Shown: piece after piece, positions 10,834 to 17,040 of the stretch
How positions within the stretch are numbered: position 1 is the stretch's first letter
Layout of the letters: every line of letters begins with the position of its first letter
Assembly (NCBI GenBank): GCA_050015395.1
Contig: JBEKBM010000038.1
Location: forward strand, 1-17,040
Direction of reading: 5' to 3'
Source of the DNA: Candidatus Bathyarchaeia archaeon
GTDB lineage: Archaea > Thermoproteota > Bathyarchaeia > Bathyarchaeales > Bathycorpusculaceae
DNA: 17,040 nt
Translations under genes and position numbers: made by a program
Notes under the pieces: generated by a model
Databases searched by the model: none
Told to the model about the DNA's origin: nothing
The model's input: the letters and a program-made list of their open reading frames with translations, nothing else

Positions 10834-10906
10834 CTTTACTTACAGCTCTTTAAGCCGAGAGAGTTAATACCGTTACCTGCATATTATTGTTCCGTAAGTG
10901 GTTGGC

Positions 10907-11203
10907 ATGGTTGAAAACGAGGCAATCGTTGAGAGACTTTCCAAGGTTTTGGGTGTTCCACCGAAAGAACTAGTAAGAAAGGGATTAGAAGAGTTGCTTG
11001 AGGCGCAGTTGAGGGCTTGTTTTGCTGACATCGCTGAAATAAAGACGCGGTATGAGGTTAAAAGTGCTGCAGAACTGGAAAAGAAGATTGAGAAAGGAAC
11101 TATTGATGAGCACCCAGCATGGGAAGACCTAATCGTCTTGGAAAACTTAGAGGAACGCGCCAAGAAGATTAAAAAAGAGTTAGTGGCTCTCAAACATGCC
11201 TAA
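10907..11203 (+). CDS. Putative antitoxin (TumA-like) of a type II TA pair
   Basis: Small charged helical protein with 'RYEVKSAAELEKKIEKG.IDEHPAWEDLI.LE'; overlaps the downstream DUF6516-like gene by 8 nt. Alternative start GTG at 10898. Confidence 0.7.
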   Translation: MVENEAIVERLSKVLGVPPKELVRKGLEELLEAQLRACFADIAEIKTRYEVKSAAELEKKIEKGTIDEHPAWEDLIVLENLEERAKKIKKELVALKHA

Positions 11204-11597
11204 CGATTCAAATTTGGAAGCGCTGTTCAATCGGATTATTGACCTTATTTATGCCGTGTTTTCTGATATAGTTATTGACGTTCATCTTCGTTTTAGTCCC
11301 TCAGGCTCAATTGAAAGGCTTCGAGTTTTCTTGATTGATGACACTTTTATCGATGTTTGGCTGTCAGCATCTGGAAAGTATTCTTACCACTGGGAGCAGA
11401 GACATGTACGGGGAATTATACATCGTCATGATAACGTACCACATAGCAAATGGAAAAAGATCAAAACATTCCCTAAACACTTCCACGATAGAACAGCAGT
11501 TTTCTTGCAACCAACGAAGTCGTTACAAGAATCCCTTGACCAGAAAACTTTCCAAAAAATGGAATTGTTTGGTGTGGCTTCACGCTCAGAAGGATAA
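11196..11597 (+). CDS. DUF6516/TumE-family putative toxin
   Basis: LRVFLIDDTFIDVW, YSYHW and RHDNVPH...TFPKHFH match the DUF6516 R-x-D-N-x-P-H...TFP-x-H-x-H signature. Confidence 0.78.
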   Translation: MPNDSNLEALFNRIIDLIYAVFSDIVIDVHLRFSPSGSIERLRVFLIDDTFIDVWLSASGKYSYHWEQRHVRGIIHRHDNVPHSKWKKIKTFPKHFHDRTAVFLQPTKSLQESLDQKTFQKMELFGVASRSEG

Positions 11598-11850: not shown

Positions 11851-13011
11851 ACGGGAACATCCCAAACATTTACGATAAAGTACGTTATATCCGCCAGATT
11901 TGAAATTGAAGGTGTAGTAGAAAAACCCGATGTGATAGGCGCAGTTTTCGGTCAAACAGAAGGACTTTTTGGACCTGAACTTGACTTAAGAGAACTACAG
12001 AAAACAGGCCGCATCGGAAGAATCGAAATCGACCTACACTCAAAAAATGACAAAACCACTGGATCAATAACTATTCCAACTAGTTTAGATAGGGTTTCAA
12101 CAGCGCTGATTGCCGCAAGTATAGAAAGCATCAACCGTGTCGGTCCATGCTCAGCCAAAGTTAGCTTAGAAAAAATCGAAGACATTCGTGAAGCACGTAG
12201 AAAAATAATCATTGACCGAGCAAAAGAAATCCTGCATAAATGGACTATTGAGTCACTGCCAAGCATAGATGAAGTTTACAAAGAAATCTCTGATACAATG
12301 AAAATCGGCAAAGTCGAAAAGTACGGTCCAGAGGACTTGCCCGCTGGTCCAGGCTTAGAAAGCGCTAAAGAAATCATTGTCGTTGAAGGACGCGCTGACA
12401 TAATCAATCTAATGCGCTGCGGAATTTTCAATACTGTTGCCCTTGAAGGCGCCAAAGTTCCTGAATCAATAAAGAAGCTATCTAAAGAGAAAACAGCAAC
12501 TGCCTTGCTTGACGGCGACCGAGGCGGCGACCTAATACTAAAAGAGTTACAGCAAGTTACAAATGTCAAGTTTGTTGGTCGTGCTCCAAGAGGCAAAGAA
12601 ATCGAGGAATGCAACTGCAAAGAAGTCGCTGAAGCCCTGGAAGCAAAGGTTCCAATCGCCGAGGCATCAGGTAAACCTCCTAAAAAGCCTGAGCCGCAGC
12701 ACATCGCAGTTGAAGTTCCAGAGCCCATAAGCCACGCTGCAAAAGCGTTGCTGGGCACACTTGAAGCAGTTTTGCTGAATGACAAGTTCGAGTTGATTGA
12801 GCGTTTGCCAGTAAGCCAATTAGCAGAAAAGCTACAGCAAGTAAGCGGCGTTGACACAGTGGTTTTTGACGGCATCATCACGCAGAGAATCGTTGATATC
12901 GCAGGCGAGAAAAACATTAGACGCATAGTTGCTTCGCGAATTTCAGAAGCGGTAAAGCCAGCCCTAAACGTTGAATTGGTAACTTTCCAAGACGCAATCG
13001 CTCAAGCCTAA
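11851..13011 (+). CDS. dnaG: Archaeal DnaG (TOPRIM primase-like, exosome-associated protein)
   Basis: KYVISARFEIEGVVEKPDVIGAVFGQTEGL, LRELQKTGRIGRI, TOPRIM VVEGRAD and DGDRGG, and FDGIITQR. The conserved frame extends upstream of the ORF-track start at 11932; the start at ACG 11851 is inferred. Confidence 0.95.
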   Translation, partial: TGTSQTFTIKYVISARFEIEGVVEKPDVIGAVFGQTEGLFGPELDLRELQKTGRIGRIEIDLHSKNDKTTGSITIPTSLDRVSTALIAASIESINRVGPCSAKVSLEKIEDIREARRKIIIDRAKEILHKWTIESLPSIDEVYKEISDTMKIGKVEKYGPEDLPAGPGLESAKEIIVVEGRADIINLMRCGIFNTVALEGAKVPESIKKLSKEKTATALLDGDRGGDLILKELQQVTNVKFVGRAPRGKEIEECNCKEVAEALEAKVPIAEASGKPPKKPEPQHIAVEVPEPISHAAKALLGTLEAVLLNDKFELIERLPVSQLAEKLQQVSGVDTVVFDGIITQRIVDIAGEKNIRRIVASRISEAVKPALNVELVTFQDAIAQA

Positions 13012-15392
13012 AGGTAATCAGTCAGGCTTCTGACTTCTTCACTTTCTTTCTTTTCACTTATTAGTTCTTTTTCCGTTACGCCGAAAAAGCCTAGTATTCT
13101 TGCTGCTGCAGGAACCACTTGATTGGTTACGTAGTAGTCAGCGTCTACTTCATCGTACTTGGCGAAAACGTAAGGTTTCACGCGGTTGTAAAATCGTCCT
13201 TTACCTGCCAGTATGACAAAGCCTACTTTGTCGCCGCCTGTTAGGCGCCAGCCCTTTTCTATTAGCATTTTTGCCGCTTCCACATGCGGAGCCTTAATAG
13301 CGTACTGTTCCGGCGGCTTTGTTAGTGTTTTCCAAATTATTAGGTCGCGGAACGGGACTTTCCTTTGCTTTAGCTCTTCTATCACGGTGCGCACGTAGTC
13401 AATTGCCTTCGCAGGCGACTGCTCTTTTAGAATTATTTCGAGAACGTGTTCTTGCACTTTTTTAGCTACTTCAGCCCAATCCCCTCGAATCACTTCTAAC
13501 CCGACAATGTCTAAGGTGCCGTCAAGCCTCAGTCCTGCATACCGTTTTTTTGCTTCTGTGAAGAAAATGTGTTTGTAGACCTCGCCGACTTCTACTTCTA
13601 AGCCTAAATTCTCTTTAATCTCAGCTTTGAGCTCAACCAGTTTCTTTTCGTCGTTGGTTAAGAAGAGGCTGTCAGTGTCACCGTAAATAATCGTTAAGCC
13701 TTTGTCTTCAGCTAAACGGGTAGCGGTTAAAATGGTGTGTCTACCCCAAGCGGAAGCTGCTTCAGCTACTGGTTTAATGTACCATCTTGCGCCGACCCAG
13801 CCAGCGTACCCATAGGCAGCGTTTGTTATGACTTTTACCGCTTTTTGCCTTGCATCTAAAATGCTGTATTCAACCGTGCTGGGGCTTAAAGCCTTCATTT
13901 CTAAGCGTATTTTGTTTCTTACTTCTATTAGGTAGGTTAATGCTTCCTTGTAGAATCCGGGCGGTGCTTTGCGGAATCGGTGCTTTACTTCGGGCGCTTC
14001 GTAAACTCCGCTTGGCGGTTCAGGCTCATCGGGTGCAACGTAGGTGTCAGGCGACAGGTTGTATCGTATCATGATGTTGGGGTACATTGATTTGAAGTCT
14101 AAAACCGCAATGTTATCGTGCAATCCAGGTTTTGGTTTAAGCACTAACCCACCAGCGTAAGGCCGATACGGCTGCTCTACCCGTCTGGGAATGAGTTCAC
14201 CGAGTTTGCGTGTCTGCTTAATAAGAAACCATTCGACCCTAAAGCCCACCGCTGCAGTCATAACATGGTCCAACGGTAAGCTAACTAGACTGGATAGCTG
14301 CATTGCGAAATCCAACAGCAACTTTGCCGAGCCTTGGATTTTGCGAGCATTGTTTAGGCTGAATTGTTTAAGCGCTTCTCTTTTCTGCTGGTTTTCCCAG
14401 TAATCGGCGAATTCAACATCCTCAATTTCAATGCCTGATGCGTTTTTCATTATGCCTAAGTAGTAAGCTAAGTTGGAAAGTGTCTTAACCTTCACTTCTG
14501 GAAAAACATCCATAAAATCGGCAAGGTCCACGTTAGCCATGCCCGTAAACGACACGTGACCGTAAATGCTGGTATGCGGCTCCTTTCTTCCCCGGTCAAC
14601 ATCAAACGTTCTTTCAAGCCTGTGGCTTCTCTTTATTAAGTAATCCCAATCTCGAGTGTTAGCGCCGAAGCTAACGATGATATCAGGGTCAAACTGGCAA
14701 ACGTACGCAACAAACTGTTGAAGGATAGGCTTATCATTTTTGTCGTCGTCTGCAAGGAACTGCTTTTCTTCGCCGGTGCTTGCAACAGTGGATATTATTA
14801 CTACAGGATTTCTGTCCGGTTTAGGTGAGCCTTCCCGACTATAACTAATCATTGAGAAACTAAGGATTCTAAGCGGAGGCTTATCTACGCTACCGAGTTG
14901 TTTTGGAATAGACCTTGCAGCATAAACCTTATCCGCCCTTACGCCTAATCTGTTTTCTTCTTCCTCAGCCTCCACTTCGTGCCATGCGCAGGGAGCCACG
15001 TTATTGTCGATTAGGTACCGCATTGAAATGCGAATATCATCTTCGAGGCATTCTTTGACCCCTTCGAGCCCTCGAAGCGCCTTTGCAAGCTTCCCTGTTT
15101 CGATTGCAACTTTACAGTAAACTTTTATTGCCTGCACAGGTTTGCCGAAGAACCTGCGCTCTACAACTTCCAAGTTCACTATTGATGACGGGTAAGCGCT
15201 CATGATTTCCTTTGCAGTTTTCGACGGGTCAAATCCTTCTTTGACCACAGCGTAAAAATAAGCAGTAAAGTTTCTGTCAATAACGAGCACTCGGTTTCCC
15301 TTTGAATCAATTCCCCAAAGCCACAAGTCAGCTGTACCATTTTCTATTTTGGGGTTAATGTCTAGGAGCCAAAAAGTAATTTTCACAGGCAA
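13008..15392 (-). CDS. polB: Family B DNA polymerase (PolB3-like) with degenerate 3'-5' exonuclease motifs
   Basis: Motif A LDFKSMYPNIM, motif B RQKAVKVITNAAYGY, motif C YGDTDSLF, KKRYAG and GLEVIRGDW. The start may be GTG at 15386 (AGGCGA just upstream). Stop overlaps the dnaG stop by 4 nt. Confidence 0.96.
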   Translation of the reverse strand: MPVKITFWLLDINPKIENGTADLWLWGIDSKGNRVLVIDRNFTAYFYAVVKEGFDPSKTAKEIMSAYPSSIVNLEVVERRFFGKPVQAIKVYCKVAIETGKLAKALRGLEGVKECLEDDIRISMRYLIDNNVAPCAWHEVEAEEEENRLGVRADKVYAARSIPKQLGSVDKPPLRILSFSMISYSREGSPKPDRNPVVIISTVASTGEEKQFLADDDKNDKPILQQFVAYVCQFDPDIIVSFGANTRDWDYLIKRSHRLERTFDVDRGRKEPHTSIYGHVSFTGMANVDLADFMDVFPEVKVKTLSNLAYYLGIMKNASGIEIEDVEFADYWENQQKREALKQFSLNNARKIQGSAKLLLDFAMQLSSLVSLPLDHVMTAAVGFRVEWFLIKQTRKLGELIPRRVEQPYRPYAGGLVLKPKPGLHDNIAVLDFKSMYPNIMIRYNLSPDTYVAPDEPEPPSGVYEAPEVKHRFRKAPPGFYKEALTYLIEVRNKIRLEMKALSPSTVEYSILDARQKAVKVITNAAYGYAGWVGARWYIKPVAEAASAWGRHTILTATRLAEDKGLTIIYGDTDSLFLTNDEKKLVELKAEIKENLGLEVEVGEVYKHIFFTEAKKRYAGLRLDGTLDIVGLEVIRGDWAEVAKKVQEHVLEIILKEQSPAKAIDYVRTVIEELKQRKVPFRDLIIWKTLTKPPEQYAIKAPHVEAAKMLIEKGWRLTGGDKVGFVILAGKGRFYNRVKPYVFAKYDEVDADYYVTNQVVPAAARILGFFGVTEKELISEKKESEEVRSLTDYL

Positions 15393-15625: not shown

Positions 15626-17040
15626 TTAATTATTTGGGGGCAAACTCAAGATAAATTTTGTTCCTTTTCCTTCTTGGCTTTCAAAAGTTATGGTTCCGCC
15701 TAGTGCCTCAATTAGACGTTTAGTTACTGCTAATCCTAAGCCTTGTCCTTTCGATTTAGTAGTAAATAAAGGCGTGAAAAGTTTGGGTTTGATTTCTTCA
15801 GGTATGCCTTTACCAGTATCTGCTACTGTTATTATTACTTGGTTTTCTTTTTCCAACGCTGCTATTTCTACTTTTCCTCCATCAGGCATTGCTTGCAGAG
15901 CATTGTTAGTTAAATTCGTTAATACACGCCTGATCAAGGTTGGGTCAGTTTTTATTTTTGGAAAGCTTTTAGCGTCTATTTTTAGGTCTATTTTGTCTGG
16001 AATATTAATTGTTAAAAGAACACTAGTAATCAAATCAGACAAGTCAACTTCAGTAATCTCAGGTCTTAATGGTCTAGAGTAATCTTGTAAATCAGAAACT
16101 ATTTTGCTAATATAATCGGTTTGTTCTTCAATTAAACCAAGACTTTCAAGTTTTTCCTTTTTATTTTTCTCAGCAGTCGCATTAGTAATGGTTTCTTTAA
16201 CTATGAATATTTCATTAGTAATAGCCTGCAGTGGATTACGAATATCATGCCCAACCATGCCTGCGATTTGACCAATAGTTGCAAGGCGTTCTTTATCTTG
16301 AAGCTGCCTAGTTCGCTCTTCAACTAACTTCTCTAAATTCTTAGAGTATTCTTCAAGCTTAACTTGTGCATTTGTGAGCTGCTTAGTTTTTTCTTCAACT
16401 AAACCCTCAAGATTCTTAGAGTATTCTTCAAGCTTAGCTTGCATTTCTTTGTACTGGGTAATATCTTGCATACCACCAATAATGCGCACACGTTTTCCTG
16501 TCGTATCCTTTATAATTTTTGCTATGCCCCGAACAACAATATAGTTGCCTTTTTTATGGCGAATATGATACTCATTTACGATGTTATCCAAGTTTTTTTT
16601 TGTAGGGTAGAATTGTTCTATAGCTTTAGGAACATCTTCAGGTAAGATTTGGTTTATCCACCAATCAACACTATATTGTACCTCTTCAGGTAAGTATCCA
16701 AGAAGTCCTTCTAAGCCACGGACGATGAAAATTTTGTTGGTTTTAGGATCAATTTCATATATCATCATTCCAGAAGCTTCAATTGCATAGTTTAGTCGCT
16801 GATTGCTTTCAACTAGCCAATCTGCTACGTTTACTCTATCGGTAATATCACGCATTATAGACATTAAGCCAACTTTGTTGCCTGATTTGTCTTTAAGCAC
16901 AGTAACAACAGATTCAATAACAGCCTTTTGGCCTTTGGGTCTAACGTGAACGTTAGTGCCTTGATAGAAGCCTTTCTCTTTTAAAGACAAAGCAGCTTCC
17001 TGTTCAGCGTCGGGCGTAAACCATAACTGTCGATATAGGG
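15626..17040 (-). CDS. PAS-domain sensor histidine kinase; 5'-partial (starts beyond the right edge)
   Basis: The frame is open past 16990 to the edge (LYRQLWFTPDAEQEAALSLK...). It has two PAS/PAC ends (RDIT, QDIT), H-box GHDIRNPL, N-box NNALQA, G1 DTGKGI, F-box LFTPLFTTK and G2 GQGLGL. Confidence 0.93.
   Translation of the reverse strand, partial: LYRQLWFTPDAEQEAALSLKEKGFYQGTNVHVRPKGQKAVIESVVTVLKDKSGNKVGLMSIMRDITDRVNVADWLVESNQRLNYAIEASGMMIYEIDPKTNKIFIVRGLEGLLGYLPEEVQYSVDWWINQILPEDVPKAIEQFYPTKKNLDNIVNEYHIRHKKGNYIVVRGIAKIIKDTTGKRVRIIGGMQDITQYKEMQAKLEEYSKNLEGLVEEKTKQLTNAQVKLEEYSKNLEKLVEERTRQLQDKERLATIGQIAGMVGHDIRNPLQAITNEIFIVKETITNATAEKNKKEKLESLGLIEEQTDYISKIVSDLQDYSRPLRPEITEVDLSDLITSVLLTINIPDKIDLKIDAKSFPKIKTDPTLIRRVLTNLTNNALQAMPDGGKVEIAALEKENQVIITVADTGKGIPEEIKPKLFTPLFTTKSKGQGLGLAVTKRLIEALGGTITFESQEGKGTKFILSLPPNN

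Follow-up and report, generated by a model that had tools for sequence, protein, structure and literature searches.

A PolB3-group DNA polymerase of Bathyarchaeia with an intact polymerase site and a proofreading site predicted to be inactive

The stretch of DNA considered here, hereafter the window, comprises the 17,040 nucleotides (nt) of contig JBEKBM010000038.1 from a Candidatus Bathyarchaeia archaeon (GenBank assembly GCA_050015395.1) and encodes on its minus strand, at positions 13008..15392, a family B DNA polymerase of the PolB3 group. In our reading of its sequence, to which we assign a probability of about 0.78, this protein belongs to a Bathyarchaeia PolB3 lineage that kept an intact polymerase, lost proofreading once and would serve as a PCNA-tethered, non-proofreading accessory enzyme, while bulk accurate synthesis would be carried out by PolD and/or PolB1.

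An intact polymerase site beside a degenerate exonuclease site

Proofreading exonucleases of the DEDDy type bind two metals and rely on the Asp and Glu of ExoI, the Asp of ExoII, and the Tyr and Asp of ExoIII. Four of these five residues are replaced in the window's PolB (all coordinates in this section are on the minus strand). The ExoI position reads LRILSFSMISYS (from amino acid (aa) 174; 14838..14873), with S180 in place of the catalytic Asp and I182 in place of the catalytic Glu. At the ExoIII position, LKQFSLNNA (aa 341; 14346..14372), the Tyr has become F344 and the catalytic Asp N348. The ExoII position, SFGANTRDW (aa 241; 14646..14672), has exchanged its Asn for G243 and retains the sole survivor of the five, the catalytic Asp D248. 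A HMMER alignment to the Pyrobaculum calidifontis polymerase 5mdn (E 9.6e-215), with which MAFFT alignments agree, sets FSMISY against FDIEVY at ExoI, FGANTRDW against YNSNGFDW at ExoII and FSLNNA against YVLDDV at ExoIII.

Since only one of the four carboxylates is left and the catalytic Tyr is gone as well, the site should not bind the two catalytic metals. In Thermococcus kodakarensis PolB, the replacement of both ExoI residues (D141A/E143A) compromises the exonuclease and is the standard change by which it is disabled (PMC13136892). The initial annotation of the window, made from the letters and open reading frames (ORFs) alone, had already named these motif strings together with canonical polymerase motifs, all of which were located in the frame, and its residue calls (ExoI Asp and Glu, ExoII Asn, and ExoIII Tyr and Asp lost; ExoII Asp kept) coincide with the 5mdn alignment.

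The polymerase site shows no such decay. Motif A generally has a DxxSLYPS-like consensus, motif B a KxxxNSxYG-like one, and motif C reads YGDTDS. The window's PolB has DFKSMYPNI as motif A (aa 432; 14073..14099), KVITNAAYGY as motif B (aa 520; 13806..13835) and YGDTDS as motif C (aa 570; 13668..13685), and its residues D432, K520, D572, T573 and D574 are invariant in an alignment of 131 sequences. The protein also has the family B architecture, with Pfam DNA_pol_B_exo1 (PF03104) at aa 117-294 (E 5.7e-17) and DNA_pol_B (PF00136) at aa 373-767 (E 3.5e-62), both above their cut-offs. It divides into an N-terminal domain delimited by alignment to 5mdn (aa 1-130; 15003..15392), a 3′-5′ exonuclease-fold domain that is folded and catalytically degenerate (aa 131-372; 14277..15002) and the polymerase domain (aa 373-767; 13092..14276).

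The frame spans 794 aa from a TTG codon to the stop codon at 13008-13010. Because the identical database entries are 792 aa long and begin with VKITFW, the true start is probably the GTG at 15386, two codons past the TTG, which would yield a protein of 792 aa. The initial annotation described a full-length PolB in a 794-aa frame; the coordinates it gave, 14341-14880, take in only the exonuclease motifs and not the whole gene.

At its C-terminus, the protein ends in VRSLTDYL (13011..13034), a conserved tail predicted to be disordered (the structure model described below falls under a confidence of 50 at residues 782-788 and 792-794). Its consensus is [RK]SL[MT]DY[LV], with Leu at position -5 and Tyr or Phe at position -2 each present in 119 of 121 close homologues. 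PCNA-interaction (PIP) motifs follow a Qxx[LIM]xx[FYW][FYWL]-like pattern, of which the tail has the hydrophobic and aromatic positions and lacks the Gln; to judge by these residues, it looks like a PIP motif.

None of the NCBIfam equivalog cut-offs was reached by the window's PolB, the nearest being TIGR00592 (231.7 bits; cut-off 239.95). Hence products across the clade carry generic names: close homologues in Bathyarchaeia metagenome-assembled genomes (MAGs) are called 'DNA polymerase domain-containing protein' by NCBI.

A loss shared by one clade

The degenerate exonuclease site is not a peculiarity of this contig. All 121 proteins of a set made up of the query and 120 matches of at least 72% identity are without the ExoI Asp and Glu, and all of them keep DFKSMYP and YGDTDS; the substitute ExoI string, FSM[IV]SYS, is itself conserved in the close relatives. 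A library of representatives clustered at 50% identity returned 12,994 matches, and among the best 150 of these, many of the nearest full-length clusters are degenerate at ExoI and interleaved with clusters that have FDIE.

Within the class, 81 Bathyarchaeia genomes of at least 80% completeness were searched with an orthologue threshold of E <= 1e-100, and 58 of them have a PolB3 orthologue. Beyond the window's own, this makes 57 matches, 49 of which were fetched and 48 were readable (L119 had no suitable frame; G027, G032, G035, G038, G050, G054, G064 and G084 lay outside the set that was read). The ExoI Asp-Glu pair is missing from all 48 and none has the full DEDYD set, while motifs A, B and C are kept in every one. 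In one orthologue (L125, G056:C38), the frame is interrupted by a single in-frame TGA, and the ExoI Asp is kept and the Glu lost. The suggestion of the initial annotation that the trait may be lineage-wide is thereby confirmed and turns out to have been too narrow, as a single clade carries it beyond Bathyarchaeia.

That clade emerged from a tree and motif table built from 73 of 80 named species-representative loci with frames of 700-870 aa, the query and the PolB1 of its own genome (L026, L029, L034, L068, L073, L081 and L086 were excluded because their frames fell outside this range). The 80 loci are the best matches to the query alignment and hence an uneven sample. Of the resulting rows, 33 are degenerate and 42 intact. 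Degenerate rows comprise all those of Bathyarchaeia type as well as one Methanomethylicia, Methanodesulfokora (Korarchaeia), a 'Thaumarchaeota' MAG and a Geothermarchaeota MAG; intact rows comprise PolB1, every sampled order of Thermoprotei, another Methanomethylicia, Methanocellales, Archaeoglobi and Methanohalarchaeum. The separation at the residue level is sharp: the positions of the ExoI Asp, ExoI Glu and ExoIII Asp are acidic in 1, 0 and 2 of the 33 degenerate rows versus 41/41 of the other PolB3 rows, which all have the catalytic D, E, D and D (DEDYD in 40 and DEDHD in one).

When the full-length maximum-likelihood tree is rooted on PolB1, all 33 degenerate rows fall together in a single clade, with a support of 100 in the Shimodaira–Hasegawa-like approximate likelihood ratio test (SH-aLRT); this clade is nested in a group that also contains Thermofilales, Thermoproteales and the Methanomethylicia row that is intact. 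Restricting the tree to the polymerase domain reproduces the split (SH-aLRT 95), so it is not the exonuclease domain that holds these rows together. None of the neighbouring branches is degenerate, nor is the outgroup, and the change therefore reads as one loss, which implies, as far as these sequences go, that the proofreading residues disappeared a single time, in the ancestor of the subclade of PolB3 now found in Bathyarchaeia, some Korarchaeia, Methanomethylicia and other TACK MAGs.

Some contigs or proteins labelled as bacterial also represent a PolB3 of Bathyarchaeia type (L008, L024, L069, P0093 and P0104, assigned to Limnocylindrales, Acidoferrum, Acidobacteriota, Binatia and Chloroflexi), two of them, L008 and L024, together with the DnaG-like neighbour described below. 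These are most likely mis-binned archaeal contigs.

A folded exonuclease domain under selection

An AlphaFold2 model computed from the 131-sequence alignment reached a mean predicted local distance difference test score (pLDDT) of 94.1 and a predicted template modelling score of 0.90, and it is confident across the exonuclease domain (pLDDT mostly 90-98) as it is in the N-terminal domain (92-98). The exonuclease domain does not diverge unusually fast relative to the polymerase domain, the ratio of their mean pairwise identities being 0.88 among 26 core Bathyarchaeia rows versus 0.86 among 41 intact rows. Nei-Gojobori ratios of nonsynonymous to synonymous substitution (dN/dS) between close orthologues come to 0.08-0.16 in the exonuclease domain and to 0.046-0.09 in the polymerase domain, values that are rough because dS, at 0.9-1.6, is near saturation (one pair was not computable). 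On these alignments and this model, the exonuclease domain is kept as a folded, presumably non-catalytic module under purifying selection. The initial annotation's view that several substitutions in an intact frame reflect a selected loss and not a sequencing error is borne out by this constraint, by the intact polymerase site and by the conservation of the change in 121/121 and 48/48 proteins.

Assignment to PolB3

A Foldseek search with the AlphaFold2 model returned 5mdn as its top match (template modelling scores 0.89/0.92), a structure named PolB3 in PMC7544198. In the tree, which had PolB1 as outgroup and held no B2 or B4-B10 sequences, the window's PolB nests among Thermoprotei and euryarchaeal PolB3 rows; its identity to the PolB1-like and PolB2-like proteins of its own genome is 27-29%, counted over the polymerase domain only.

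Gene order points the same way. The polymerase gene converges with a Toprim gene of archaeal DnaG-like type (11932..13011, plus strand; Pfam Toprim_4, E 8.4e-07), whose 3′ end overlaps the polymerase stop. A DnaG-like homologue adjoins the polymerase in 76 of 109 loci (L007-L086 and L100-L128), and the pairing covers Bathyarchaeia, many orders of Thermoprotei, Methanomethylicia and one Archaeoglobales MAG. The tail-to-tail arrangement of PolB3 and DnaG-like genes is thus deeply conserved, and since the neighbour is common to Thermoprotei PolB3 loci, the degenerate enzyme occupies the canonical PolB3 position. Taken together, the window's PolB is the Bathyarchaeia orthologue of archaeal PolB3.

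Two other assignments were considered and rejected. Membership in PolB2 is contradicted by motif C (YGDTDS), by an ExoIII helix that can be aligned and by the presence in the genome of a separate PolB2-like gene with HGIVDS, and the initial annotation's remark that the protein is not a typical PolB2 therefore stands, all the more as it groups with PolB3. Nor is it a paralogue beside an intact PolB3: the window's own genome and five others that were checked have a single PolB3-like gene each, accompanied by a PolB1-like gene and with or without a PolB2-like one.

The other polymerases of the genome and the class

The genome of origin (2.59 Mb in 42 contigs, 98.9% complete) contains three genes of family B, and an inventory of its polymerases, proposed in the initial annotation, found PolB1, PolD and a Y-family polymerase (PolY) beside the window's enzyme. 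The PolB1-like protein (920 aa) has an intact exonuclease site, with AIDIEVYS, TFNGDDFDL and YCLRDS, and the polymerase motif YGDTDS; it passes NCBIfam NF004417, 'DNA-directed DNA polymerase I', with 1079.8 bits against a cut-off of 780 and can, on its sequence, be read as PolB1. The PolB2-like protein (766 aa) has HGIVDS as motif C. PolD is represented by both DP2 and DP1, the latter (519 aa) with the strings DLH, GDVVD, GNHD and GHIH, which we take to fit the phosphoesterase motif pattern and thus an intact DP1. The DP1 gene (L006, G000:C18) adjoins an ORF of 412 aa on the opposite strand whose product appears from its sequence to be an AAA+ protein of Cdc6/Orc1 type; DP1 next to a Cdc6/Orc1-like gene is an arrangement frequent around replication origins.

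Across related genomes, exonuclease motifs were intact in 10/10 further PolB1-like proteins. DP2 is present in 73 of the 81 class genomes and, by hand cross-tabulation, in 52 of the 58 that hold PolB3. One genome with a degenerate PolB3 (G019; 98% complete, ~30 contigs) gave no candidate at all in a search for the DP2 N-terminal domain. In Methanomethylicia, a genome with a degenerate PolB3 (G001, L033) has DP2 and one with an intact PolB3 (G002, L044) yielded no DP2 match, an anecdotal observation with n=2.

PolB3 itself is less constant. At E <= 1e-100, no orthologue was found in 23 of the 81 genomes, including whole families (0/3 and 0/2), which suggests repeated loss within Bathyarchaeia. 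Five of the genomes without it (G017, G052, G057, G074 and G076; 86-99% complete, one in a single contig) have a PolB1-like gene only, joined in two of them by a PolB2-like gene. Because such good genomes show nothing but PolB1-like and PolB2-like family B genes, the exonuclease-degenerate PolB3 appears to be dispensable within the class, PolB1 and PolD being the constants.

Proposed role and alternatives

A presumably dead exonuclease, an intact polymerase site and a PIP-like tail together lead to the proposal of a PCNA-tethered, non-proofreading accessory polymerase. The initial annotation's low-fidelity, strand-displacing or repair polymerase is likewise a putative role. With its polymerase site active and its exonuclease site dead, the enzyme would synthesise DNA without proofreading, and its C-terminal tail would tether it to PCNA. 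Its work may consist of gap filling, of strand displacement during Okazaki-fragment maturation and/or of extension in damage tolerance, while accurate bulk replication would be left to PolD, with the exonuclease of DP1, and/or to the exonuclease-proficient PolB1. Removal of proofreading is known to favour both strand displacement and the extension of mismatches. Studied relatives provide precedents for either type of work: the PolB of T. kodakarensis, which belongs to the PolB3 group, acts on the lagging strand and carries out strand displacement and the maturation of Okazaki fragments far better than PolD, whose strand displacement fails at lower temperature (PMC13136892), and the PolB3 of Sulfolobus, which is not essential, takes part with PolB2 in tolerating damage (PMC7785828).

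Expression data add little. In a peat metatranscriptome, a fraction of 0.06 of the gene's sampled words was recovered, together with five contigs (209-363 nt) of 90-96% identity; at this identity the contigs derive from a relative, and they allow no conclusion on transcription of the gene itself.

Several points weigh against the proposal of a non-proofreading accessory enzyme. Both the exonuclease loss and the role are deduced from sequence, and the dN/dS values that speak for selection are affected by the near-saturation of dS. The catalytic D248 survives in the query, and acidic residues specific to the clade are conserved at the sequence level, namely E187, D266, E324/D325 and D361, the last in place of a Pro that is present in 41/41 intact rows. 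The trees behind the single loss are quick searches with SH-aLRT support only and PolB1 as sole outgroup, and five clade members (L064, L067, L069, L072 and L083) have long branches. Finally, no DP2 match was found in 6 of the 58 Bathyarchaeia holders of PolB3 or, outside Bathyarchaeia, in two of the four genomes whose PolB3 is degenerate. Either PolD does not strictly accompany this PolB3 or these MAGs are incomplete; strict co-occurrence was accordingly rejected, and the counts of 52/58 and 2/4 are suggestive only.

The missing DP2 matches in six holders also feature in an improbable alternative, in which the window's PolB serves as the principal replicase and relies on DP1 of PolD or on another nuclease to proofread in trans. 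The perfectly conserved polymerase site, the PIP-like tail and the wide distribution of the gene, which 58 of the 81 class genomes hold, would all suit a replicase. However, it would be a replicase without which 23 of these genomes, five of them 86-99% complete, appear to manage, and in the presence of other candidates: exonuclease-intact PolB1-like genes occur in 11/11 genomes checked and DP2 in 73/81. No exonuclease is conserved in the gene neighbourhood; the only conserved neighbour is the DnaG-like gene, which exonuclease-intact lineages share.

Markedly less probable still is an exonuclease that remains active through a rebuilt site composed of D248 and the clade-specific acidic residues. 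The retention of D248 in 27 of the 33 degenerate clade members, the conservation of the listed acidic positions within the clade, which intact PolB3 does not share, and the purifying selection on the domain are what such a site would predict. Yet ExoI has lost both its carboxylates and ExoIII its Asp and Tyr, the loss of the ExoI pair alone being enough to compromise an archaeal PolB exonuclease (PMC13136892), and the replaced positions are non-acidic (S, I, F and N in the query). The clade-specific residues are not conserved in the deeper members, and an alignment of 17 sequences has no invariant acidic column in the exonuclease domain beyond the shared structural ones. D361, for its part, lies 13 residues from position 348 on the same helix and, by helix geometry, should be too distant. 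That the gene is an inert scaffold, a decaying pseudogene or an assembly or sequencing artefact is the most far-fetched of the three alternatives. It could draw on the failure of every NCBIfam equivalog cut-off and on the precedent of PolB2, long held to be an inactivated polymerase (PMC4104785), but nothing interrupts the frame, motifs A, B and C persist in all 48 orthologues read, the polymerase domain is the more strongly constrained of the two (dN/dS 0.046-0.09), the fold is predicted with high confidence and proteins 99-100% identical to the window's PolB are present on many independent contigs. Error and pseudogene were rejected on these grounds.

Other features of the window and of related loci

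The window has a G+C content of ~41%. Upstream of the polymerase lies a PAS-domain histidine kinase gene (15626-16990, minus strand), which adjoins the polymerase in one other locus only (L031) and is therefore not a conserved neighbour. An ORF of 133 aa at 11196-11597 (plus strand) matches the Pfam TumE toxin domain (E 2e-13) and is overlapped upstream by an ORF of 101 aa (10898-11203, plus strand), with which it may form a toxin-antitoxin pair; a search of the related loci found it in none of them.

Relation to known polymerases and implications

The closest known relatives of the window's PolB are the PolB3 enzymes of Thermoprotei, represented by 5mdn from P. calidifontis, with which it shares domain order, fold, motifs A, B and C, the DnaG-like neighbour and a branch of the tree. 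It differs from 5mdn and all 41 other PolB3 rows precisely in the exonuclease motifs, having FSMI, GxNxRD and FxxxN where those have FDIE, NxxxFD and YxxxD. The outcome resembles the engineered D141A/E143A PolB of Thermococcales, from which the same ExoI carboxylates have been taken out with the polymerase site left as it was (PMC13136892). In contrast to the engineered enzyme, however, the change in the window's PolB is natural, ancient and clade-wide, and it extends to the Tyr and Asp of ExoIII and the Asn of ExoII.

Inactivated exonuclease domains are a familiar theme among family B polymerases, which tempers the novelty of the finding: they are described for Pol alpha, Pol zeta, the C-terminal half of Pol epsilon and PolB2 (PMC7544198, PMC4104785). 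Eukaryotic Pol alpha and Pol zeta are family B enzymes that likewise combine an active polymerase with an inactivated exonuclease domain that has been kept, and they work beside proofreading partners (PMC7544198). They nevertheless belong to a Delta-like clade and have Zn-binding C-terminal domains and accessory subunits, whereas the window's PolB is without such a C-terminal domain; the parallel concerns function and is not meant to suggest descent. Within the same domain of life, a further comparison is offered by archaeal PolB2 (Dpo2), a paralogue in family B whose exonuclease motifs are degenerate and whose role is accessory or translesion synthesis (PMC7544198, PMC8764526). PolB2, however, has a single conserved Asp in motif C together with a conserved His and is missing ExoIII (PMC7544198), whereas the window's PolB has YGDTDS and a recognisable ExoIII helix. 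A full-text literature search, which took in main-text passages, returned no description of an exonuclease-dead clade of PolB3.

A broader scenario is conceivable, although we regard it as speculative and rather doubtful. Through the ancient loss, the PolB3 of those TACK archaea in which PolD is retained (Bathyarchaeia, Korarchaeia, some of the Methanomethylicia and related groups) may have become a dedicated polymerase devoid of exonuclease, a natural counterpart of Pol alpha or Pol zeta that would serve strand displacement and the maturing of Okazaki fragments or the extension of mismatches and lesions. If so, its role would weigh most at moderate temperature, where PolD displaces strands poorly, and archaea would, independently of eukaryotes, have come to divide the work three ways, among PolD, PolB1 and a PolB3 with a dead exonuclease.

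There are also practical consequences. As the NCBIfam naming is generic, surveys that score PolB3 as present would wrongly presume a proofreading replicase in these organisms, and the clade is a natural source of exonuclease-minus family B enzymes whose hosts range from mesophiles to thermophiles. PolB3 is usually seen as a proofreading, high-fidelity enzyme; the predicted exonuclease-dead members described here form an ancient and environmentally abundant branch of it that is nonetheless strongly conserved. They would thus provide a concrete case for the division of labour among archaeal PolD, PolB1, PolB2, PolB3 and PolY, one that parallels the position of Pol alpha and Pol zeta in eukaryotes.

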